Part shown: one piece after another, positions 2,296 through 33,437 of the stretch
Position numbering within the stretch: position 1 is the stretch's first letter
Layout: the number at the start of each line of letters is the position of its first letter
Source: an uncultured Mycoplasmatota bacterium
GTDB lineage: Bacteria; Bacillota_I; Bacilli_A; RF39; UBA660
DNA length: 64,000 bases
Assembly: GCA_900550255.1 (NCBI GenBank)
Contig: URQZ01000006.1
Location: 3,392-67,391 of the forward strand
Direction: 5' to 3'
Program-made: the position numbers and the translations under genes
Notes under the pieces: model-generated
Seen by the model: only the letters and a program-made list of their open reading frames with translations
What the model was told of the DNA's origin: nothing
Database searches by the model: none

Positions 2296-3224
2296 TGCCA
2301 AAATATAGTATAATAATTCCAGTTTATAATACCGAAGCATATTTAAAAAAAAGCTTAGATAGTATTATTAATCAAACATATAAGGATTTTGAAATTATTG
2401 TTGTCAATGATGGAACAAAAGATAATAGTCAAGATATTATTGATATGTATGTGGATAAATATGAATGCGTTAAAAGTATTGTTCAAGAAAATCAAGGATT
2501 AAGTGTTGCTCGTAATAATGGTATAAAAAAAGCTCGTGGTAAATATTTTTTAGTTTTAGATAGCGACGATTACTTTGAAATAGGTCTTTTAGAAGAACTA
2601 AATAAAGAACTTGAAAAAAACGGAAATGTAGATTTAATGAGATTTCAAGTTAGAAATATATCTAAAAACACAATTGATTATCATGAAGAACCCTTTAATA
2701 ATTTGAATGGAATAGAAGCTTTTAAGAGAATAGTGAAATATCATTATGTAGAAAACGCATGTTGCTATTTATATAATAGAGAATACTTTATTAAAAATAA
2801 TTTTGAATATAAAAAAGGGGTTTATCATGAGGATTTTGGATTGACACCACTAGTTATAGAAAAAGCAAAATCAGTATCATCTATCGATTATATTGGATAT
2901 GATTATGTAGAAAGAGAAAACAGTATCATGACAAATAAGTCTTATCAAAAAACAATAAAAAAAGTAAATGATTTTTATGAATGTTATCTTTATGTTAATG
3001 AACAAATAGATAGTTTTCCTGGAGATCATAGTACTTTAAAAAGTTATTTAGCTAATTCAATGTTGATGAAAATAACAGAACTAAATCATAAGGATTATAA
3101 AGCCTTTTTAAAAAAATTGAAAAAAGAAAATATTTTTGATAATTTATTAGTAGATACTTTTTCAAGAAAAATAAAAAAATTGATTATATCAATAAATCCA
3201 AAATTGTATTATAAAAAAAATTAA
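2295..3224 (+). CDS. GT2 family glycosyltransferase
   Basis: N-terminal 'IIIPVYNTEAYLKKSLDSIINQTY...EIIVVNDGTKDNS' and 'LVLDSDDY' (DXD) motifs. RBS GAGGTGG. Confidence 0.85.
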   Translation: MPKYSIIIPVYNTEAYLKKSLDSIINQTYKDFEIIVVNDGTKDNSQDIIDMYVDKYECVKSIVQENQGLSVARNNGIKKARGKYFLVLDSDDYFEIGLLEELNKELEKNGNVDLMRFQVRNISKNTIDYHEEPFNNLNGIEAFKRIVKYHYVENACCYLYNREYFIKNNFEYKKGVYHEDFGLTPLVIEKAKSVSSIDYIGYDYVERENSIMTNKSYQKTIKKVNDFYECYLYVNEQIDSFPGDHSTLKSYLANSMLMKITELNHKDYKAFLKKLKKENIFDNLLVDTFSRKIKKLIISINPKLYYKKN

Positions 3225-3239
3225 CTTAGGAGGTAGAAT

Positions 3240-4175
3240 ATGATAAGTATTATTATTCCTTGTTATAATGCTGAAAAAACAATTAAAAGATGCTTAGAAA
3301 GTGTAATTAGTCAAACATATAAAAATATTGAAATTGTCATTATTAATGATGGTTCTACTGATAAAACCGATTCGATTATAAAAAAATACATAAATGATAG
3401 TAGAATAAAATATTATAATAGAAGCAATCATGGTATAGGAAAAACAAGAAATTTTGGAATAAAAGAAACAACTGGAGAGTATATTACCTTTTTGGATAGC
3501 GATGATTATTTGCCAAATGATGCTATTGACAATTTATATAACTTGGCTCAAAAAAATAAGTTAGACTTAGTAGTTAGTGATTATTATGTAGATAATAAAA
3601 ATATAAAAAGTGAAAAAATAAAATCTTTTCCTATTACTAATGTTAAAAATAATCCTAATTTAATTTTTGATATTAATTTAGCACCTTGGAATAAATTATA
3701 TAAAAAGGAATTGATTGAAAATATCAAATTTGAAGAAAATCTAAAATATGAAGATGCTCCATTTGTTATAGAAAGTATAATAAAGGCAAAAAGAATAGGA
3801 AAACTTGATAAAGAAACTTATTATTATGTTGTTAATCCAAATAGTGAAACAACAATTAGGGATGAAAGAATTTTTGATATATTTAAAATTTTAGATATTA
3901 TTGGAAGGTTAGTAGAAAATAAAAAAGAATTAACTGAAGTTTATAAAACTTTATGTATTAGAATTATTTGTAATTATAATATACAACAAAGATATCAGAA
4001 AAAAATAAAGACAGCTAATCGTTTTATAAATAAAGGATTTTACTATATGAAAAAGGTAGATCCTAAATATAAACATAGTGTATATTTTAAAAATCGTAGT
4101 AAGAATAAAGCGTTGATAGAAAAAAATAAATTTTTAACAAAATTATATTGTTTTATTTATATTAGTTTAAGATAA
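3240..4175 (+). CDS. GT2 family glycosyltransferase
   Basis: 'ISIIIPCYNAEKTI...IEIVIINDGSTDKT' and 'FLDSDDYL'. RBS TAGGAGGT. Confidence 0.85.
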   Translation: MISIIIPCYNAEKTIKRCLESVISQTYKNIEIVIINDGSTDKTDSIIKKYINDSRIKYYNRSNHGIGKTRNFGIKETTGEYITFLDSDDYLPNDAIDNLYNLAQKNKLDLVVSDYYVDNKNIKSEKIKSFPITNVKNNPNLIFDINLAPWNKLYKKELIENIKFEENLKYEDAPFVIESIIKAKRIGKLDKETYYYVVNPNSETTIRDERIFDIFKILDIIGRLVENKKELTEVYKTLCIRIICNYNIQQRYQKKIKTANRFINKGFYYMKKVDPKYKHSVYFKNRSKNKALIEKNKFLTKLYCFIYISLR

Positions 4176-4176
4176 T

Positions 4177-4205
4177 AAAGCCTTGTGTTAATGTGGCTTT
4201 TTTTG
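4177..4205 (+). terminator. Rho-independent terminator
   Basis: AAAGCC...GGCTTT hairpin followed by a T-run. Confidence 0.5.
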
Positions 4206-4245
4206 ATATAATATGTAATGAATATAATGAAAAGGAAGTGTATAA

Positions 4246-4986
4246 ATGAAAAGCAAGAATGCAATAGTAGTAAGTCATGTTAACAAAGATTTTAAACTAT
4301 ACTACGATAGAGCTAATACTTTGAAAGAAAAAATTTTGTTTTTCACAAAAGATAAAAGTAAAAATGATGTTTTACATATATTAAAAGATATTAATTTAAC
4401 AATCAAAAAAGGAGAAAGTGTTGCTTTAATAGGAACAAATGGTAGTGGTAAGTCTACTTTATTAAAATTAATGACTAAAATCATATATCCTAATAAAGGA
4501 AAAATTTCAGTAAATGGAAAACTTACTTCTCTTTTAGAGTTAGGAGCTGGATTCCATCCTGATTTTTCTGGTAGAGAAAATATATATTTTAATTCAGCTA
4601 TATTTGGGTTAACAAAAAAAGAAATAGATGCAAGACTTGAAGAAATAATTGAATTTTCAGAGCTTCAAGAATTTATAGATAATCCTGTTAGAACTTATTC
4701 TTCAGGAATGTATATGCGCCTTGCTTTTTCTATTGCTATAAATGTTGATGCAGATATTTTACTTATTGATGAAATTTTAGCCGTAGGAGATCAACATTTT
4801 CAAGAAAAATGTTTTAATAAATTAAGAGAATTGAAAAAAGCCGGAAAAACAATTGTTATTGTAACGCATAGTATGGGACAAGTTAAACAATTTTGTGATC
4901 GTGCAGTTTGGTTATACAAAGGAAAGATCAGAATGGATGGAAATGTTCCAGATGTATTAGAAGAATATATTAAGGTTTGTGGGTGA
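4246..4986 (+). CDS. ABC transporter ATP-binding protein of the teichoic-acid/polysaccharide exporter type (TagH/Wzt/KpsT-like)
   Basis: Walker A 'GTNGSGKSTLLKL', signature 'YSSGMYMRLAFS', Walker B 'LLIDEILAVGD'. A permease gene follows. Confidence 0.85.
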   Translation: MKSKNAIVVSHVNKDFKLYYDRANTLKEKILFFTKDKSKNDVLHILKDINLTIKKGESVALIGTNGSGKSTLLKLMTKIIYPNKGKISVNGKLTSLLELGAGFHPDFSGRENIYFNSAIFGLTKKEIDARLEEIIEFSELQEFIDNPVRTYSSGMYMRLAFSIAINVDADILLIDEILAVGDQHFQEKCFNKLRELKKAGKTIVIVTHSMGQVKQFCDRAVWLYKGKIRMDGNVPDVLEEYIKVCG

Positions 4987-4990
4987 TTAG

Positions 4991-5764
4991 ATGAATTTGA
5001 TGAAAGAACTTTATAATTATAGAGAATTATTAAAAACTAATATAAAAAAAGATATTAGAGGAAAATATAAGGGGTCTTGGTTAGGCGTTATTTGGACCTT
5101 TTTAAATCCTTTACTACAATTGTTAGTTTATTCTTTTGTTTTTCCTTTTATTTTAAGAATTAACGTTGAAAATTATACTATTTTTATGATTGTTGCTTTA
5201 ATGCCATGGAACTTTTTTACAACGGCAGTTCAACAGGGATGTGGTTGTATAGTTGCCAATGAAGGAATATTGAAAAAAGTGTATTTTCCACGTGAGATTT
5301 TACCAGTTTCAATTGTTACTAGTACATTAGTTAATTTTCTTATAACTTGTATTATTATGTTTGTATTTATAATATTTGGTGGTGTTGGAGTTACTTGGCA
5401 TGTATTGTTATTTCCGCTTATTATTTTAATTCAATATATAATTACTTTAGCGCTTGTTTTTATCTTATCAGCTATTGTAGTTTTCGTAAGAGATGTTGAT
5501 CATTTTGTCGGTATTGTATTGATGCTTGCTTTTTATGTAACACCAATCATTTATACTCCAGATATGTTACCTGCAAAATTTCAATGGGCTATAACTTTTA
5601 ATCCTATTGCTCAATTAATAAATGCATATCGTGATGTTTTATATTATCATCAATTACCTAATATGACTTCGCTTGGTATTGTAGGATTAATTAGTCTTGT
5701 TGCATTAGGACTTGGGTATATGATATTTAAAAAATTAGAAAGAAACTTTGTTGAGGAGTTGTAG
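4991..5764 (+). CDS. ABC-2 type permease (TagG/Wzm-like) of the glycopolymer exporter
   Basis: Six-TM ABC-2 pattern with 'GSWLGVIWTFLNPLLQL'. Immediately downstream of the ATPase. Confidence 0.8.
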   Translation: MNLMKELYNYRELLKTNIKKDIRGKYKGSWLGVIWTFLNPLLQLLVYSFVFPFILRINVENYTIFMIVALMPWNFFTTAVQQGCGCIVANEGILKKVYFPREILPVSIVTSTLVNFLITCIIMFVFIIFGGVGVTWHVLLFPLIILIQYIITLALVFILSAIVVFVRDVDHFVGIVLMLAFYVTPIIYTPDMLPAKFQWAITFNPIAQLINAYRDVLYYHQLPNMTSLGIVGLISLVALGLGYMIFKKLERNFVEEL

Positions 5765-9882: not shown

Positions 9883-9936
9883 GCTGTTTTCTTTTTTAAT
9901 TTTAAATGCTATAATATGGATATTGGAGGTGTTACT

Positions 9937-11514
9937 ATGAATTTGTTATTGAAAAATGGTAAAAAAGTTTTGTTAGTTGTTTTTTCATTCTTTTTCATTT
10001 TTGGTGTTAAAGCATTAGAAAACAATTCTGTATCTAACATTAATAATCTTAGTAGTTGTGTTTTACAAAATTTAAATGGTAATAAATATTGTTTAGATGA
10101 AAATGGAGTAATGCAAAAGGGAATAATTAATGTAGATGGTACAAAATATTTCTTTGGAGAATACTCGGGAGTATTAAAATATGGATTTGTAACAGCACTA
10201 AATGGAGATGTGTATTATACCTCAAATGACGGAATAATAAGAACAGGAATCCAAATGATAAACGGAAATAAATATTATTTTAATGAAAATGGAATAATGC
10301 AAAAAGGTATAATTGATATAGATGGTACAAGATATTTCTTTGGAGAATACTCAGGAGTATTGAAGTATGACCTTGTGACAGCTTTAAATGGAGAAGTGTA
10401 TTATACATCGAATGATGGAGTAGTAAAAACAGGAATTCAAGAAATAGGCGGAAACAAATATTATTTTGATGCCAACGGAATAATGCGAAAGGGAATAATT
10501 GAAATAGATGGTACAAGATATTTCTTCGGAGAATACTCAGGGGTATTAAAATATGGATTTGTAACAGCTTTAAATGGAAATATATATTATACAGCAAATG
10601 ATGGAATAGTAAGAACAGGAATTCAAACAATAAATAAGAAAAAATATTTCTTTGGAGAGTATTCAGGAGTATTAAAATATGGACTCGTAACAGCTTTAAA
10701 TGGAGATGTGTATTATACAGCAAATGATGGAATAATAAGGACTGGAGTTCAAATAATAAATGGAGTTTTATATAAGTTTAATAGCGAAGGAAAATTAGAG
10801 AGTGGATGGACAACAAAAGCCGGCGCAACTTATTTTATGCAAGCTGATGGTACATTTTTAACGGGTTGGCATATAGTAATGGGTGAAAAATGCTTTTTCA
10901 ACTCATTAGGTCAACTTATTGGAAGAAATGTAAAAAGGATTATAGATGTTTCTAAATTTCAAGGTGAAATAGATTGGTATGCATTAAAAAATTCAAATAC
11001 TGTAGATGGTGTTATTTTAAGAATAGGATTAGGTAGTACATTACTTGATGAACAGGCTAAAAGAAATATTCAAAAGCTTAATGAATTGAATATTCCTTAT
11101 GGAATCTATTTGTTTAGTTATGCAGAAAATTCTCAAGAAGCAATTTGGGAAGCTGATTATACTAATAGATTAATAAAAGAATATGGAGCCAATCCAACAT
11201 TGGGAGTTTATCTAGATATTGAAAAATGGACTACTCATGCAGATGCTTCTGATAATATAAGTCAAGCAACTTATGAAGCAATTATTACAACTTATATAAA
11301 TAGAATGTCAAATTATGGCTATACAGCAAGAGTTTATACTGGTAAAAATTATGCCTTAAATAGATTAACAGAGTTAGCCCGTAGTTATGTCACTTGGATT
11401 GCTCAATATAATTATGTTTGTAATTATCCTGGATCATATAGAATATGGCAATATGGATCAGAGTATTATCCTGGAATAAATGGTGCGGTTGATACAAATG
11501 TTATGTTTAATTAA
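9937..11514 (+). CDS. GH25 muramidase (lysozyme/autolysin) with signal peptide and about 14 cell-wall-binding (CW_binding_1/choline-binding-type) repeats
   Basis: Signal peptide 'MNLLLKNGKKVLLVVFSFFFIFGVKA'. Repeated 'NGNKYYF.ENGIMQKGII.IDGTRYFFGEYSGVLKYGFVTALNG.VYYT'. C-terminal GH25 'IIDVSKFQGEIDWYAL...DGVILRIGLGST...GIYLFSYA'. Confidence 0.85.
   Translation: MNLLLKNGKKVLLVVFSFFFIFGVKALENNSVSNINNLSSCVLQNLNGNKYCLDENGVMQKGIINVDGTKYFFGEYSGVLKYGFVTALNGDVYYTSNDGIIRTGIQMINGNKYYFNENGIMQKGIIDIDGTRYFFGEYSGVLKYDLVTALNGEVYYTSNDGVVKTGIQEIGGNKYYFDANGIMRKGIIEIDGTRYFFGEYSGVLKYGFVTALNGNIYYTANDGIVRTGIQTINKKKYFFGEYSGVLKYGLVTALNGDVYYTANDGIIRTGVQIINGVLYKFNSEGKLESGWTTKAGATYFMQADGTFLTGWHIVMGEKCFFNSLGQLIGRNVKRIIDVSKFQGEIDWYALKNSNTVDGVILRIGLGSTLLDEQAKRNIQKLNELNIPYGIYLFSYAENSQEAIWEADYTNRLIKEYGANPTLGVYLDIEKWTTHADASDNISQATYEAIITTYINRMSNYGYTARVYTGKNYALNRLTELARSYVTWIAQYNYVCNYPGSYRIWQYGSEYYPGINGAVDTNVMFN
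10072..10925 (+). repeat. Coding tandem repeats of ~180 bp (three 20-aa cell-wall-binding repeats per unit), about four units
   Basis: Near-identical 60-aa blocks are visible in the translation. They generate the spurious antisense ORF 10280..10723. Confidence 0.8.
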
Positions 11515-19467: not shown

Positions 19468-20245
19468 TATTCATACATTTGTAGTACTAGCGTATAAAGA
19501 GTCAAAATACTTAGAAGAATGTATAAAATCAGTATTGAATCAAAAATATAGGAGTAAAGTTGTAATTGCAACATCTACACCAAATAAATTTATTGATAAA
19601 ATTGCGAAGAAGTATAATTTGGAAATTATTGAAAATAAAGAACATAGAAGTATAGGTGGGGATTTTGATTTTGCCATAAGTTGTGGTAAAACAGAACTTG
19701 TTACGGTTGCACATCAAGATGATGTTTATGATTATGAATATAGTTATAGTATGGTAGAGGCTTATAAAAAAAATAAAGAAGCTTTGATTATTTTTCCACA
19801 TTATTACGAAATTAAAAACTCTGGAAAAGTATATAAAAATACAAATTTAAATATCAAAAAAATACTATTATATCCGTTAAAAATTAGAAAATTTAGTAAA
19901 TATAAATTTAATAAACGTTTTAGTTTATGTTTTGGTAATCCAATAGGATGTCCATCTGTAACCTTCAATAGAAAAAAAATTGATTTACCTCTTTTTGAGT
20001 ATGAATTTAAATGTGATATTGATTGGCATGCATGGGAAAAATTAAGTAAAAAAAATGGCTCATTTATATATGTAAGTAAACAATTAATGGGCCATAGAGT
20101 TCATGATGAATCAACTACAACAGAGCTAATTAATGATAGAACAAGAACTAAAGAAGATTTAGAAATGTTTAAAAGATTTTGGCCAGATTTTATAGCAAAG
20201 TTTATTAATAAATTTTATGTTAAAGCTGAAAAAAATAATCAATAG
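19454..20245 (+). CDS. GT2-like glycosyltransferase
   Basis: 'HTFVVLAYKESKYLEECIKSVLNQ' is a GT2-like N-terminus. Overlaps the upstream gene by 14 nt. Confidence 0.55.
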   Translation: MKTNSIHTFVVLAYKESKYLEECIKSVLNQKYRSKVVIATSTPNKFIDKIAKKYNLEIIENKEHRSIGGDFDFAISCGKTELVTVAHQDDVYDYEYSYSMVEAYKKNKEALIIFPHYYEIKNSGKVYKNTNLNIKKILLYPLKIRKFSKYKFNKRFSLCFGNPIGCPSVTFNRKKIDLPLFEYEFKCDIDWHAWEKLSKKNGSFIYVSKQLMGHRVHDESTTTELINDRTRTKEDLEMFKRFWPDFIAKFINKFYVKAEKNNQ

Positions 20246-20265
20246 CATTTATATGCTATTTTTTT
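20243..20265 (+). terminator. Rho-independent terminator
   Basis: TAGCAT-ttat-ATGCTA plus TTTTTTT. Confidence 0.65.
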
Positions 20266-20274
20266 AATATATAA

Positions 20275-20306
20275 ATGTTGAATTTTTCAACATTTTGTGA
20301 TACTAA
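20275..20306 (+). promoter_or_regulatory. Sigma-A-type promoter (-35 TTGAAT, 17-bp spacer, -10 TACTAA) with a perfect 19-bp palindrome ATGTTGAA-TTT-TTCAACAT overlapping the -35
   Basis: Read directly. Palindrome 20275..20293, -35 at 20278..20283, -10 at 20301..20306. Confidence 0.45.
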
Positions 20307-20323
20307 TATATTAGGGTGATAAA

Positions 20324-21418
20324 ATGAATAGTATTGAAAGTAAATTAAAACAGTTACGTTTAATGAATAATCTAACTCAAGAAGAACTTGCAAATAGATT
20401 AGGTATTGGACGTGATGCAGTTATAAGAATAGAAAAAGGGATAAGAAAGTTAAGTTTAGAAGAAATAAAAAAAATAACTGAAATCTACAAAATACCACTA
20501 TCTTATCTAGATGAAGATATTATTACTGACAATAATAAAACAATGAAAGGGATTATACTTGCAGGAGGATCTGGAACAAGACTTTATCCCATTACAGAGG
20601 GAATAAGTAAACAATTGATGCCAATATATGATAAACCAATGATTTATTATCCATTGTCAACTTTAATGTTAGCTGGTATTAAGGATATATTAATTATTAC
20701 AACAAAGGAAGAACAACAAGGATTTAAAAATCTTTTAAAGGATGGAAAACAATTTGGTCTTAATTTGGAATATATGATTCAACCTTCACCAGATGGACTT
20801 GCTCAGGCTTTTATTTTAGGAGAAAAATTTATAGGAAATGATGCTTGTGCGATGATTTTAGGTGATAATATTTTCTATGGAAGTGGTTTTGAAAATCTAC
20901 TTAGTCATGCAAAGAACAGTGCATTATCAGGAACAGCTACTATTTTTGGAAATCAAGTAAAAGATCCAGAAAGATTTGGAATTATGGAGTTAGATAAAAA
21001 TAGTAATGTTCTTAGTGTAGAAGAAAAACCAGAAAAACCAAAATCAAATTATGCTATTACAGGATTATATTTTTATCCTAGTGGTGTTAGTCAAAAAGCT
21101 AAAGAAGTAAAACCATCAGCAAGAGGAGAATTAGAAATAACTACTTTAAATGATTTCTATTTAAAAGATGAAAAATTAAAAGCTGAAAAACTAGAAGAAG
21201 GTTTTGTTTGGTTTGATACGGGTACATTCGATAGTCAATTAGAAGCAGCAAATATGATTAAGGCAATTGAAAGCAATCAAGATAAAGTTATATGTTGTCC
21301 AGAAAAAATAGCGTATGATAATAATTGGATTAATGAAGAACAATTAGAAAAAAGAGCAGAATTACTTCATAAGAACACTTATGGTAAATATTTAAAAAAA
21401 GTTTTAAAAAGGAGATAA
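20324..21418 (+). CDS. rmlA: Glucose-1-phosphate thymidylyltransferase (RmlA) with an N-terminal ~70-aa XRE-family HTH domain fused in frame
   Basis: N-terminal 'LRLMNNLTQEELANRLGIGRDAVIRIEKGIRKLSLEEIKKI' is an XRE HTH. It continues without a stop into 'MKGIILAGGSGTRLYPIT...SKQLMPIYDKPMIYYPL', which is RmlA. Confidence 0.8.
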   Translation: MNSIESKLKQLRLMNNLTQEELANRLGIGRDAVIRIEKGIRKLSLEEIKKITEIYKIPLSYLDEDIITDNNKTMKGIILAGGSGTRLYPITEGISKQLMPIYDKPMIYYPLSTLMLAGIKDILIITTKEEQQGFKNLLKDGKQFGLNLEYMIQPSPDGLAQAFILGEKFIGNDACAMILGDNIFYGSGFENLLSHAKNSALSGTATIFGNQVKDPERFGIMELDKNSNVLSVEEKPEKPKSNYAITGLYFYPSGVSQKAKEVKPSARGELEITTLNDFYLKDEKLKAEKLEEGFVWFDTGTFDSQLEAANMIKAIESNQDKVICCPEKIAYDNNWINEEQLEKRAELLHKNTYGKYLKKVLKRR

Positions 21419-21421
21419 ATA

Positions 21422-21994
21422 ATGAAAAAAATAGAAACGAATTTGTTAGATTGTTATATATTAGAACCAGACCGCTTTGGAGATGATAGGGGATATTTTT
21501 CGCCATATTTTATTCAAAAAAATTTAGATGAATTAGGATTTGAACGAGTAGTCCAAGCTAATAGAAGTAAAAGTTCAAAAGGTGTTGTAAGGGGATTACA
21601 TTTTCAAGAAGATCCTAAATGTCAAGCTAAAATAGTTGAGGTTATTAGTGGCGCTGCAATTGATGTAGTAGTTGATATACGTGAAGACTCAGAAACATAT
21701 GGTAAATGGACAAGCGTTCTTTTAACACCAGATAATAATAGACAACTATATGTCCCTCGTGGATTCGCACATGGATTTGTAAGCCTAGAAGATAATACAA
21801 TATTCCAATATTTAATTGATAATGATTATGCACCTGAATTAGAAGGAGGAATTCTTTGGAATGATCCTCAAATAGGTATTAATTGGAAGGAAATATTTGA
21901 AAAATATAATATAGAAAAACCAATTTTATCAGAAAAGGATATTAATCGTGAAACTTTAGCTGAATGTAAAACTATATTTAGGAGGAATAAATAA
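21422..21994 (+). CDS. rmlC: dTDP-4-dehydrorhamnose 3,5-epimerase
   Basis: 'DDRGYFSPYF...RGLHFQ...QAKIVEVISGAAIDVVVDIR...RGFAHGF' matches RmlC. Confidence 0.85.
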   Translation: MKKIETNLLDCYILEPDRFGDDRGYFSPYFIQKNLDELGFERVVQANRSKSSKGVVRGLHFQEDPKCQAKIVEVISGAAIDVVVDIREDSETYGKWTSVLLTPDNNRQLYVPRGFAHGFVSLEDNTIFQYLIDNDYAPELEGGILWNDPQIGINWKEIFEKYNIEKPILSEKDINRETLAECKTIFRRNK

Positions 21995-22863
21995 TGAAAT
22001 TTTTAGTAACAGGTTATAAAGGACAACTTGGATATGATATTGTTAGAGAATTAAAAAAAAGAGGATATAATGACATTATTGCTATAGATAAAGAAGAATT
22101 AGACATAACTGATGAAGTAGCAACAATGGATTTGATCACTAAAGAAAAACCTGATGTGGTATTTCATTGTGCAGCCTGGACAGCTGTTGATAAAGCAGAA
22201 GACTGTGAAGATGCTGTATATAAAGTCAATGTAGAAGGAACAAGAAGTATAATGGATGCTTCAAGAAAAATTGGCGCAAAATTTTTCTATATAAGTACGG
22301 ATTATGTTTTTGACGGAACAAAAGAAGGTTTATATTTAGAAACTGATTCGGTTAATCCTATGAGTGTTTATGGTAAAACTAAATTTTTAGGAGAACAAGA
22401 AGCTAGAAAATATAAAAATAGCTTTATCGTTAGAATTTCATGGGTATTTGGAATAAATGGAAATAATTTTATAAAAACTATGTTAAAGCTTTCAAAAACA
22501 AAAACAGAATTAAATATTGTAGATGATCAAATAGGTAGTCCAACATATACTGTTGATTTAGCCAAAATATTAGTTGATATGGCTAAAACTGATAAATATG
22601 GAACTTACCATGTAAATAATGATGGCTTTTGTAGTTGGGCTGAATTTGCTGAATATATTTTTAAAGTTAATAATAAGGACGTTAAAGTAAATAAAGTTTC
22701 AACTGAAGAGTATTTAAAAATAACTGGTACAAAACAAGCATATAGACCAAGAAATTCAAAATTGAGTAAACAAAAATTAATAGATAATGGATTTGAAATG
22801 TTACCAACTTGGCAAAGTGCGGTTGAAAGATATAGTAAAGAATTAGAAAATAATATAGATTAG
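21994..22863 (+). CDS. rmlD: dTDP-4-dehydrorhamnose reductase
   Basis: 'MKFLVTGYKGQLGYDI...STDYVFDG' matches RmlD. Confidence 0.85.
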   Translation: MKFLVTGYKGQLGYDIVRELKKRGYNDIIAIDKEELDITDEVATMDLITKEKPDVVFHCAAWTAVDKAEDCEDAVYKVNVEGTRSIMDASRKIGAKFFYISTDYVFDGTKEGLYLETDSVNPMSVYGKTKFLGEQEARKYKNSFIVRISWVFGINGNNFIKTMLKLSKTKTELNIVDDQIGSPTYTVDLAKILVDMAKTDKYGTYHVNNDGFCSWAEFAEYIFKVNNKDVKVNKVSTEEYLKITGTKQAYRPRNSKLSKQKLIDNGFEMLPTWQSAVERYSKELENNID

Positions 22864-22878
22864 GAAAAGAGGTAATTT

Positions 22879-23883
22879 ATGAAATTTTTAGTAACTGGTG
22901 GAGCAGGATTTATAGGTAGTAATTATATGCATTATGTTGTAAATAAATACCCAGAAGATTATTTTGTGTGTTTAGATGCTCTAACTTATGCAGGAAATTA
23001 TAATAATATAAAAGATTTAGAAAATATGAAGAATTTCGAATTTGTAAAAGGAGATATTACAGATAGGGAGTTTATCGATAAATTATTTAATGATAAAAAG
23101 TTTGATATAGTAATTAATTTTGCTGCTGAAAGTCATGTTGATAATTCAATTAAAAATCCTGGAATATTTTTAAACACTAATATAATAGGAACTCAAGTTT
23201 TAATGGATGCTTCAAGAAAGTATAATATTAAAAGATATCATCAAGTATCGACAGATGAAGTTTATGGAGATTTACCTCTTGATAGACCAGACTTATTATT
23301 TACAGAGGAAACACCAATTCATACTTCAAGCCCATACTCATCAAGTAAAGCAGGTGCTGATTTATTAGTAGGAGCATATCATAGGACATTTGGACTTCCT
23401 ACAACTATTTCTAGATGTTCGAATAATTATGGCCCATACCAATTCCCTGAAAAGTTAATTCCTGTAGTTATTTCAAAAGCTTTAAAAAATGAACCTATAC
23501 CAGTTTATGGGAAAGGTGAAAATGTTAGAGATTGGATTCATGTTATTGATCACAATATAGGCGTAGATTTAATTGTAAGAAATGGACGTGTTGGGGAAGT
23601 TTATAATTTAGGTGGTCACTCAGAAAGAACAAATTTGGATGTTGTTAAAACAATTTTAAAACAAATGGGAAAATCAGAAGATTTGATTACATATGTTAAT
23701 GATAGACCTGGTCATGATTTGCGTTATGCTATTGACTCTACAAAAGTAGAAAAAGAATTAGGATGGGATAGAACATATACTTTCGAAAAAGGTATTAAAG
23801 AAACAGTTGATTGGTATCTAAATAATCAAGAATGGATAGATAATATTTTAACCGGTGAATATAGGGAAGCTTATAAAAAATAG
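22879..23883 (+). CDS. rmlB: dTDP-glucose 4,6-dehydratase
   Basis: 'MKFLVTGGAGFIGSNY...FAAESHVDNSI...YSSSKAGADLL' matches RmlB. Confidence 0.85.
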   Translation: MKFLVTGGAGFIGSNYMHYVVNKYPEDYFVCLDALTYAGNYNNIKDLENMKNFEFVKGDITDREFIDKLFNDKKFDIVINFAAESHVDNSIKNPGIFLNTNIIGTQVLMDASRKYNIKRYHQVSTDEVYGDLPLDRPDLLFTEETPIHTSSPYSSSKAGADLLVGAYHRTFGLPTTISRCSNNYGPYQFPEKLIPVVISKALKNEPIPVYGKGENVRDWIHVIDHNIGVDLIVRNGRVGEVYNLGGHSERTNLDVVKTILKQMGKSEDLITYVNDRPGHDLRYAIDSTKVEKELGWDRTYTFEKGIKETVDWYLNNQEWIDNILTGEYREAYKK

Positions 23884-23938
23884 GCTTTTTTTTTACACGT
23901 TATTATGTTATAATATAAGACAATGGTGGTGTTTTGGT

Positions 23939-25063
23939 ATGAAGACAAAAGTAAGAGATTCGAATTATGAATTGCTTAGAATTGTATCTATGTTGTTTAT
24001 TATTACATGGCACATTTTAATACATGGAATGGTATTATATCGTACAAGTGGATCTGTAAATTTTAGTTTTAATTTTTTATTTATGATTATAGTTGTCCAC
24101 GTTAATTTATTTATGCTTATTACAGGTTATTATCAAAGTAAATCTGAATTTAAATTAAAAAAGGTTATTTCTTTTCTTTTACAAATAGCATTTTATAATT
24201 TAATTATTAATTCAATTTTTAAAGTATTTGGATTAGTAGAATATACAAATGTTGAATTTTTAAAACAAATAGCTTTTTATAACTCATATTCATATTGGTT
24301 TTTTAGTTGTTATATTATAACTTATATAATAAGTCCTTTTTTAAATAAATTCATTGTTAATTTAGATAAAAAAGAATTTAAAAAATTAATTGGATGTTTA
24401 GTATTATGTTTTAGTGTTCTTCCATTTTTAACAGGAAATTTGTTATTTTCAACAAATGGATACTCAGTATATCAATTTGTATTAATGTATTTTATCGGGG
24501 CATATATAAGAAAATTTAATTTAAATAAAAATTTGCTGAAGAAAATAAATATTTCGCAAAAACGTGTTATCTATATTGTTATTTTTATTTTATGTACAAT
24601 TTTTAATTTTTCACTAATTTACCTTCAAAAACAAATGGCTGTTTTAGATAGTAATATTTTAAATAGTCTTGCTAATATTATGAAAGATTATAGTATTTTT
24701 TATAATAATCCTTTAGTTATTATACAAGCAATTTCTTTGTTTTTATTGTTTGGAACTTTTGATTTTAAAAATAAGGTAATAAATAAAATAAGTTCTTTAA
24801 CATTTGGAGTATATTTAATTCATGAAAGTTATTATATGAGAATGAATTTATATAAGTGGATAAGAATTGATAATGGCAAAATGATATATGGAAAGTCAAT
24901 ATTATTAAAAGTATTTGTTTGTGCTATCATTATATTTATTTTATGTGCAATTATAGAATGGATCCGTCAATTATTATTTAAATTAATTTCAAAATTAAGA
25001 TTTGTAGAAAAAATTGATAGTAAATTTATGACTTGGCTTACAAATATATTGGAGATAAAATAA
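23939..25063 (+). CDS. Acyltransferase family 3 membrane protein (putative glycan O-acetyltransferase)
   Basis: 'YELLRIVSMLFIITWHILIHG' is an acyl_transf_3 N-terminus, with about 10 TM. ATG at 23939 follows GGTGGTG. Confidence 0.65.
   Translation: MKTKVRDSNYELLRIVSMLFIITWHILIHGMVLYRTSGSVNFSFNFLFMIIVVHVNLFMLITGYYQSKSEFKLKKVISFLLQIAFYNLIINSIFKVFGLVEYTNVEFLKQIAFYNSYSYWFFSCYIITYIISPFLNKFIVNLDKKEFKKLIGCLVLCFSVLPFLTGNLLFSTNGYSVYQFVLMYFIGAYIRKFNLNKNLLKKINISQKRVIYIVIFILCTIFNFSLIYLQKQMAVLDSNILNSLANIMKDYSIFYNNPLVIIQAISLFLLFGTFDFKNKVINKISSLTFGVYLIHESYYMRMNLYKWIRIDNGKMIYGKSILLKVFVCAIIIFILCAIIEWIRQLLFKLISKLRFVEKIDSKFMTWLTNILEIK

Positions 25064-31336: not shown

Positions 31337-33437
<2,101 letters not shown>

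Follow-up and report, generated by a model that had tools for sequence, protein, structure and literature searches.

The dTDP-rhamnose operon rmlACDB of an uncultured Mycoplasmatota bacterium (a 64,000-nucleotide stretch of contig URQZ01000006.1, here called the window) begins with a gene in which RmlA, the glucose-1-phosphate thymidylyltransferase of the pathway, is fused in frame to an N-terminal XRE-family helix-turn-helix (HTH) domain, and the promoter of this gene carries a perfect palindrome. Comparison of the fusion and of its promoter across many genomes suggested that the protein, HTH-RmlA, is probably bifunctional, serving both as the enzyme and as an autorepressor of rmlACDB through the sequence ATGTTGA-N5-TCAACAT. 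The earlier note on this DNA had proposed that a DNA-binding RmlA could couple nucleotide-sugar sensing to autoregulation of the rml block, and its autoregulation part remained the best reading, given the conserved site in the rml promoter; the sensing part is weighed separately below.

The gene is a single stop-free open reading frame (ORF) of 364 aa at 20324-21418 on the + strand, with a Shine-Dalgarno sequence, AGGGTGA (20313..20319, +), 4 nt 5' of its ATG at 20324. An XRE/Cro-C1 five-helix HTH occupies aa 4-63 (20333..20512, +) and contains the recognition helix GRDAVIRIEKG (aa 29-39). It is followed by a flexible linker of about 10 aa (aa 64-73; 20513..20542, +), and the RmlA/RfbA domain with its stop codon makes up the rest (aa 74-364; 20543..21418, +). 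Pfam matched HTH_3 at aa 8-62 (E 6e-14, 52.2 bits against a threshold of 23) and NTP_transferase at aa 75-312 (E 5e-72), and the NCBIfam rmlA equivalog TIGR01207 scored 430.5 bits against its cutoff of 360.65, with aa 75-361 covering profile positions 1-285 of 286. Escherichia coli RmlA (1H5R) aligned with aa 72-362 at E 5e-111. The motifs GGxGxRL, KQ, GDN, EEKP and WxDTG (WFDTG in the window) were all present in the window RmlA and invariant in 64 fusions; their catalytic roles are those that we take the Pseudomonas aeruginosa and E. coli structures to assign. So aa 74-364 form a full-length member of the known RmlA/RfbA family (TIGR01207; PDB 1H5R, 1FXO, 1IIM) in an rmlACDB operon, and the difference from plain RmlA is the addition of about 73 N-terminal residues, the HTH and the linker. 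An AlphaFold2 model of the whole protein (mean predicted local distance difference test score, pLDDT, 86; predicted template modelling score 0.78) placed the HTH helices at aa 4-14, 19-26, 30-37, 45-54 and 59-63, with block pLDDT values of 75-91 over aa 1-60; the linker was of low confidence, with pLDDT <50 at aa 67-71, and the remainder was a normal RmlA fold. The nearest solved HTHs were XRE regulators and the restriction-modification controller protein C.BclI (E 1e-5). All 56 matched PDB sequences aligned to the RmlA part alone (from about aa 69), and none spanned both domains. The window protein is thus a bona fide RmlA joined to a bona fide XRE-family HTH, and the full-length fusion is the sole RmlA form encoded at this locus. 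The earlier note had read the gene in this way, and both domains indeed scored above curated cutoffs in one uninterrupted frame; the peptides that it quoted also matched the sequence. The database name of the protein is plain RfbA, and the architecture has stayed hidden because of this annotation.

The second half of the argument concerns the promoter. A perfect inverted repeat, ATGTTGAATTTTTCAACAT, lies at 20275-20293, and its arms extend to 10 nt, AAATGTTGAA-TTT-TTCAACATTT, at 20273..20295, so the candidate operator spans these positions, with the conserved core ATGTTGA-N5-TCAACAT at 20275-20293. The -35 hexamer TTGAAT (20278..20283, +), which is TTGACT in most orthologues, lies in the left half-site, and the claim that it sits within a perfect 19-bp palindrome could be read directly from the letters. 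We placed the promoter by alignment with orthologous promoters and not by the consensus promoter/terminator scan; at the position of the orthologues' TATAAT the window has a probable extended -10 element, TGaTACTAA (20298..20306, +), placed 7 nt after the palindrome. The consensus scan proposed TTTTCA-17-TATATT (20284-20312) instead, which leaves the exact -10 uncertain, but either call leaves the -35 and spacer region covered by the palindrome. The dyad centre at about -30, with a 17-nt spacer, is a position that would suit a repressor and not an activator. Judged by the window alone, the palindrome is moderately to mildly unusual: with a 3-nt loop between arms of 10 nt or more, 3 palindromes were found against 0.47 expected. 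Its significance comes from conservation across loci and not from rarity within the window. The exact copy is unique, and no second good copy was found in the 64 kb. As a separate observation, other perfect palindromes occur at 32168 (11+3+11, arm ATTAGGATTTA), 36548 (11+3+11, arm AAAAATTACTT), 45550 (10+1+10, arm ATTGCTAGTT) and 55356 (10+1+10, arm GACACTCATT), which together exceed the simulated expectation.

Across loci the site proved to be tied to the HTH gene. The exact sequence ATGTTGA-N5-TCAACAT occurred once per locus in 35 of 47 loci from GTDB genomes, always on the coding strand and a few tens of nt 5' of the HTH gene, and most of the remaining loci had the same site with 1-2 mismatches. 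When 127 loci (644 kb) were pooled and matches with up to 2 mismatches were counted, 119 matches, 83 of them exact, fell within -130 to +10 of an HTH gene start. Only 13 were found elsewhere, and 5 of these had an explanation: a mis-set gene start (L035), the promoters of operons with tandem rmlA genes (L039, L049, L131) and a second site (L062). About 8 weak matches were left without an explanation. No unexplained exact match was found outside HTH promoters in these 644 kb. We then aligned 42 unique fusion promoters, the window's included, with 55 unique promoters of free-standing HTH genes. The half-sites were at least 90% conserved and the flanks about 45%, and the N5 varied (CTTTT, ATTTT, AATAT, AAAAA, CAAAT and others). 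The layout was fixed, with the -35 (TTGACt) in the left half-site, the spacer formed by the right half-site and a TATAAT-like hexamer 7 nt after the palindrome, so that the palindrome overlapped the -35 and spacer of its own rml promoter in the window and in the 41 other unique fusion promoters. The closest plain-RmlA relatives (79-81% identical RmlA, GT2-rmlA-C-D(-B) gene order) had neither the HTH gene nor the palindrome. The suggestion that the palindrome is the operator of the HTH is therefore likely right, as judged by its conserved promoter position across loci. Operator variants beginning with TTGTTG were seen as well, symmetric in L071, L078 and L098 (TTGTTGA...TCAACAA) and as TTGTTGT...TCAACAT in L075. 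Covariation of helix and operator was considered, with GRN variants accompanying ATGTTGC (L059, L060) and GRDAIVRIEKGIRK accompanying TTGTTG (L071, L075, L078), but the cases were too few and inconsistent, and we make no claim of it.

Free-standing relatives of the HTH provided the most telling comparison. About three quarters of the GTDB matches to the HTH were free-standing XRE proteins of about 105-135 aa with the recognition helix GRDAI(I/L)RIEKGxRK, and their genes had the same palindrome embedded in the -35/spacer region of the promoter. These proteins matched the PADLOC capH model at E 5e-12, and the window's own HTH matched it weakly (E 2e-5). On their 3' side lies a gene whose product, of about 460 aa, joins a capP-like M78/ImmA peptidase domain (E 3e-24) to a Fic domain, and next comes a gene for a Gly-rich repeat protein. 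Since the two unrelated cargoes share only the HTH and the palindrome, it is the HTH and not the downstream gene that goes with the site, and among the computational evidence at hand this sharing speaks most strongly for binding of the palindrome by the HTH. In the scan, no GTDB assembly combined the fusion with a free-standing HTH of this kind, and the window contained neither an M78 gene beside the fusion nor a second HTH homologue. On these two grounds we set aside two further ideas, cross-talk with standalone CapH-like repressors and cleavage by a CapP-like peptidase. An alignment scan of IMG/VR viral contigs with the HTH found no relative, so the cassette is not evidently phage-borne. The free-standing loci deserve attention in their own right: at L013 3977-6132, and also at L010, L017, L028, L043 and about 70 others, the XRE repressor and the M78-Fic protein are followed by a protein of 110-150 aa with YTGPGGGL repeats and no Pfam match, and the whole resembles a Fic-based defence or toxin module under CapH/CapP control in uncultured gut Bacilli.

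The fusion itself is a family. Among the best 120 homologues, 64 shared the HTH + RmlA architecture (356-386 aa, 64-69% identity). An HTH-only alignment scan of GTDB species genomes added 12 fusion loci, in uncultured Bacilli, Erysipelotrichaceae, Mollicutes-like and 'Clostridia' metagenome-assembled genomes (MAGs) from gut and rumen, and a metagenome scan added 35. In all, the architecture was seen in about 100 diverged relatives. A search of representatives with aa 1-95 was dominated by multi-HTH repeat proteins, and clustering at 50% merged fusions with plain RmlAs, which made the search unusable for family counts. The top matches of that search (P0121, of 1002 aa, P0124 and P0132) have an odd architecture of 8-11 tandem XRE-type HTHs. 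In nearly all fusion loci with enough downstream sequence rmlC came next, usually followed by rmlD and rmlB. Five loci (L039 at 2970-5047, L049, L087, L114, L131) had a plain rmlA immediately 5' of HTH-rmlA in the same operon; the operator precedes both genes in L039, L049 and L131 and separates them in L087 and L114. This arrangement suggests that the fused copy has been subfunctionalised towards regulation. Two further peculiarities of these operons were seen. In L059 (3574-5085) and L060 (3653-5146) RmlC and RmlD are joined in one ORF of 497-503 aa (dTDP_sugar_isom + RmlD_sub_bind) directly after HTH-RmlA, a second domain fusion in the dTDP-rhamnose pathway, and the RmlC homologue at L039 5049-5879 has 276 aa against the usual approximately 190, with extensions at both ends.

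Sequence evolution indicated that the HTH is maintained. The ratio of nonsynonymous to synonymous substitution rates (dN/dS, Nei-Gojobori, six fusion pairs) was 0.10-0.26 for the 62-codon HTH core and 0.04-0.13 for the RmlA domain, so the HTH is under purifying selection. In the 64 aligned fusions R12, Q19, R30, E37 and E47 were invariant and T18, G29, D31, A32, G39 and R41 at least 90% conserved; we take R30, D31, A32 and R35 to correspond to the base-contacting recognition-helix positions of the 434 repressor. The linker was hypervariable in sequence, polar and rich in N, E, K and D, but the spacing between the recognition-helix Arg and the RmlA Lys was 42-48 residues, and 43-45 in 53 of 63 relatives. 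This tight length suggests that the placement of the HTH relative to the RmlA body is geometrically constrained. The history of the joining was less simple. In a neighbour-joining tree of the RmlA domain 61 fusions formed one clade, and the window protein, P0001 and P0002 nested among plain RmlAs of 290-295 aa. The window RmlC was 86% identical to that of the plain-RmlA locus L056, against 42-78% to those of fusion loci, whereas the window HTH was nearer to fusion HTHs (53-64%; best segments 55-59%) than to standalone ones (40-52%). The window lineage would therefore represent one of three things: a second acquisition of the cassette, recombination in the conserved 5' end of rmlA, or loss in its close relatives.

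The mechanism that we favour is as follows. The HTH of HTH-RmlA, itself a presumably competent enzyme, would bind the palindrome over the -35 and spacer, centred at about -30, and its occupancy would block RNA polymerase, so that rmlA-C-D-B would be repressed. RmlA is a homotetramer in solved structures, and the oligomeric RmlA body could pair two HTHs, replacing the C-terminal extension of the standalone repressors. The outcome would be negative autoregulation of dTDP-rhamnose synthesis, a feedback on enzyme level. Several observations weigh against this mechanism. The case for it is wholly one of comparative genomics; the window's own promoter has an ambiguous or weak -10, and the pair containing TTGAAT escaped the consensus scan; the GTDB fusion loci L007, L039 and L049 showed 2-mismatch sites only; the conservation of the left half-site is partly due to the -35 hexamer itself; and the window RmlA nests among plain RmlAs, with no evident adaptation of the RmlA side to a regulatory role.

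A refinement that does not exclude autorepression but adds to it is that DNA binding would be modulated by dTDP-rhamnose at the allosteric site, or by dTTP or glucose-1-phosphate at the active site. By analogy with BirA and biotinyl-AMP, the operon would then be repressed when the product is abundant. Feedback inhibition of P. aeruginosa RmlA by dTDP-rhamnose is established. The RmlA domain of the fusion is intact with all its catalytic motifs invariant, the short and length-constrained linker implies that the position of the HTH relative to the RmlA body apparently matters, and the five loci with a plain rmlA beside HTH-rmlA would fit a fused copy that is mainly sensor or regulator. But the window RmlA is 79-81% identical to plain RmlAs with no obvious fusion-specific change, and because RmlA is a constitutive tetramer in crystals, a ligand-driven oligomerisation switch of the BirA kind is not expected. 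We consider this ligand response possible but clearly less probable than autorepression as such. The most specific form of it, in which HTH-RmlA senses nucleotide sugar because bound dTDP-rhamnose, dTTP or glucose-1-phosphate repositions two tethered HTHs and so sets the repression of the rhamnose operon, is a little more doubtful again and is offered as speculation. If it were true, the protein would be a direct sensor of an activated cell-wall sugar, made by grafting the promoter-operator-HTH cassette of a CapH-like defence regulator onto a housekeeping enzyme. On this reading the cassette seems to have been grafted at least twice, or to have spread by recombination, and where a plain rmlA stands in tandem with HTH-rmlA the fused copy would mainly do the sensing.

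Autorepression must also be compared with the idea that the HTH is vestigial or a protein-interaction module, and that the palindrome is the target of some other factor or no more than a feature of the promoter or of a hairpin. In related lineages there are free-standing XRE proteins that have this recognition helix and in principle could occupy the site, but no scanned GTDB assembly contained both kinds of protein. The left half-site overlaps the -35 hexamer, a conserved element in any case, but the right half-site, which is no promoter element, was conserved equally. A stem of 7 bp with a T-run could form a weak hairpin; against this, the loop varied while the exact letters of the half-sites were kept, which is more than preserved pairing, and the site lies upstream of the predicted -10 and would thus be absent from the rml mRNA. 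The Rfam scan of the window gave no matches, so a riboswitch or leader was dropped as an alternative. Purifying selection on the HTH and the invariance of recognition-helix residues also argue against a vestigial domain, and we regard this explanation as improbable.

Another explanation would have one ORF give two proteins, an ordinary RmlA by internal initiation and a long form that is minor or a separate small regulator. An in-frame ATG (20543-20545, +) stands exactly at the canonical RmlA start, MKGIILAGG, and the earlier note had suggested that it could also yield a separate RmlA. Across 63 fusion relatives the residue before KGIILAGG was M in 20, I in 27, V in 9, F and L in 2 each, and A, T and Y in 1 each, so that 43 of 63 have a junction residue other than Met, including F, Y, A and T, which are never start codons. 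P0001, the closest relative of the window protein (93% identical), has Ile at the junction, no fusion has a stop between the domains, and no purine-rich Shine-Dalgarno sequence was found in the 15 nt 5' of the window's ATG. Since the Met is not conserved and a Shine-Dalgarno sequence is absent, a separate RmlA from this ATG is very unlikely, and that suggestion was not borne out. The junction comparison indicates that the fusion is obligatory in most family members, and the internal ATG of the window is apparently left over from the original start of rmlA.

The earlier note had named a sequencing error or frameshift as a way for its reading to fail. The possibility that faulty assembly or sequencing created the junction between a small HTH gene and rmlA has a negligible chance, and we found nothing in its favour. 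The identical 364-aa protein was indexed in 87 blocks from independent assemblies, for the most part of human gut metagenomes, which came from different studies and different assemblers and had contigs as long as 1.05 Mb. The 90% cluster of this protein counts 246 members, one of them named 'MAG: glucose-1-phosphate thymidylyltransferase RfbA [Bacilli bacterium]', and dozens of diverged orthologues have the same architecture.

Enzymes that regulate their own pathways as DNA-binding proteins, or trigger enzymes, include BirA (biotin ligase with an N-terminal winged HTH), NadR (an HTH with nicotinamide mononucleotide adenylyltransferase) and PutA (a ribbon-helix-helix domain with proline dehydrogenase). 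Archaeal RbkR is described as a riboflavin kinase with a winged HTH (PMC5397151). Like these four, HTH-RmlA has a pathway enzyme and a DNA-binding domain in one polypeptide and a predicted site at the promoter of its own pathway, and like NadR in particular it pairs an HTH with a nucleotidyltransferase. The likened logic would be feedback of the end product or of enzyme level on transcription, and for a ligand response of HTH-RmlA the likeness is one of analogy. Unlike them, it combines a sugar-1-phosphate nucleotidylyltransferase of a surface or cell-wall rhamnose pathway with a Cro/C1-XRE five-helix domain. A second comparison is with the CapH/CapP (ImmR/ImmA-like) pairs of XRE repressor and M78 peptidase that control defence operons. 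HTH-RmlA shares their HTH type and operator placement by way of the free-standing relatives, but RmlA takes the place of the C-terminal extension, the neighbouring M78 gene is absent and the regulated genes are biosynthetic and not defensive. The hallmark of CapH/CapP, a C-terminal extension with an adjacent M78 gene, was present only in the standalone relatives and not in the window fusion, which is therefore not a CapH/CapP system, having no peptidase partner and RmlA in place of the C-terminal domain. The controller proteins of restriction-modification systems likewise autoregulate from palindromes that overlap the -35. Among the known enzyme-repressor fusions HTH-RmlA would be a new variant, one that should moderately surprise a specialist and that has good support from the comparison of genomes. 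A full-text search found no published account of an HTH-RmlA fusion or its operator, but it covered the open-access literature only and so does not prove absence.

In many Firmicutes the wall polysaccharides that contain rhamnose are essential or almost so as surface structures and also serve as receptors for phages, and to our knowledge the transcriptional control of flux into dTDP-rhamnose is poorly known. In this setting, a whole clade of uncultured, small-genome Bacilli of gut and rumen appears to use one polypeptide as the committed enzyme and as the repressor of its operon. The case would also show how a metabolic gene can capture in frame a self-contained cassette of promoter, operator and HTH that CapH-like defence regulators share. 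The prediction is concrete, consisting of an operator of 19-23 bp, an N-terminal region of about 73 aa and candidate ligands, and it lends itself to in vitro tests that need no culture of the organism.

The surrounding genes, in a window of 24.9% GC, are those of a surface-polysaccharide locus. Directly 3' of HTH-rmlA (21422..23883) and all on the + strand, Pfam identified rmlC (dTDP_sugar_isom, 21422-21994), rmlD (RmlD_sub_bind, 21994-22863) and rmlB (GDP_Man_Dehyd/Epimerase, 22879-23883), the last with a product cluster named dTDP-glucose 4,6-dehydratase. On the 5' side is a run of glycosyltransferase genes with a flippase-like gene, the last gene being a family 2 glycosyltransferase (GT2). 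The palindrome list and the sequence itself showed a hairpin resembling a weak terminator, AATAGCAT-TTAT-ATGCTATT with a T-run after it (20241..20265, +), which overlaps the GT2 stop codon; the consensus terminator scan did not call it, because its stem has just 2 G-C pairs. Similar hairpins were found 5' of the promoter in L007, L011, L019 and L021. The hairpin would insulate the rml unit from upstream transcription, and since the GT2 gene ends in it, the rml block looks like a separate transcription unit inside the polysaccharide locus. Just upstream of that locus, 9916-11514 encodes a 532-aa protein with choline-binding repeats and a glycoside hydrolase family 25 lysozyme domain, similar to an autolysin or endolysin. 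Downstream of the rml block, the Acyl_transf_3 ORF as mechanically called (23855-25063) has a GTG start inside the 3' end of rmlB, whereas the start chosen by gene callers for identical contigs is about 84 nt further on (L001 6616, corresponding to about 23939 of the window).

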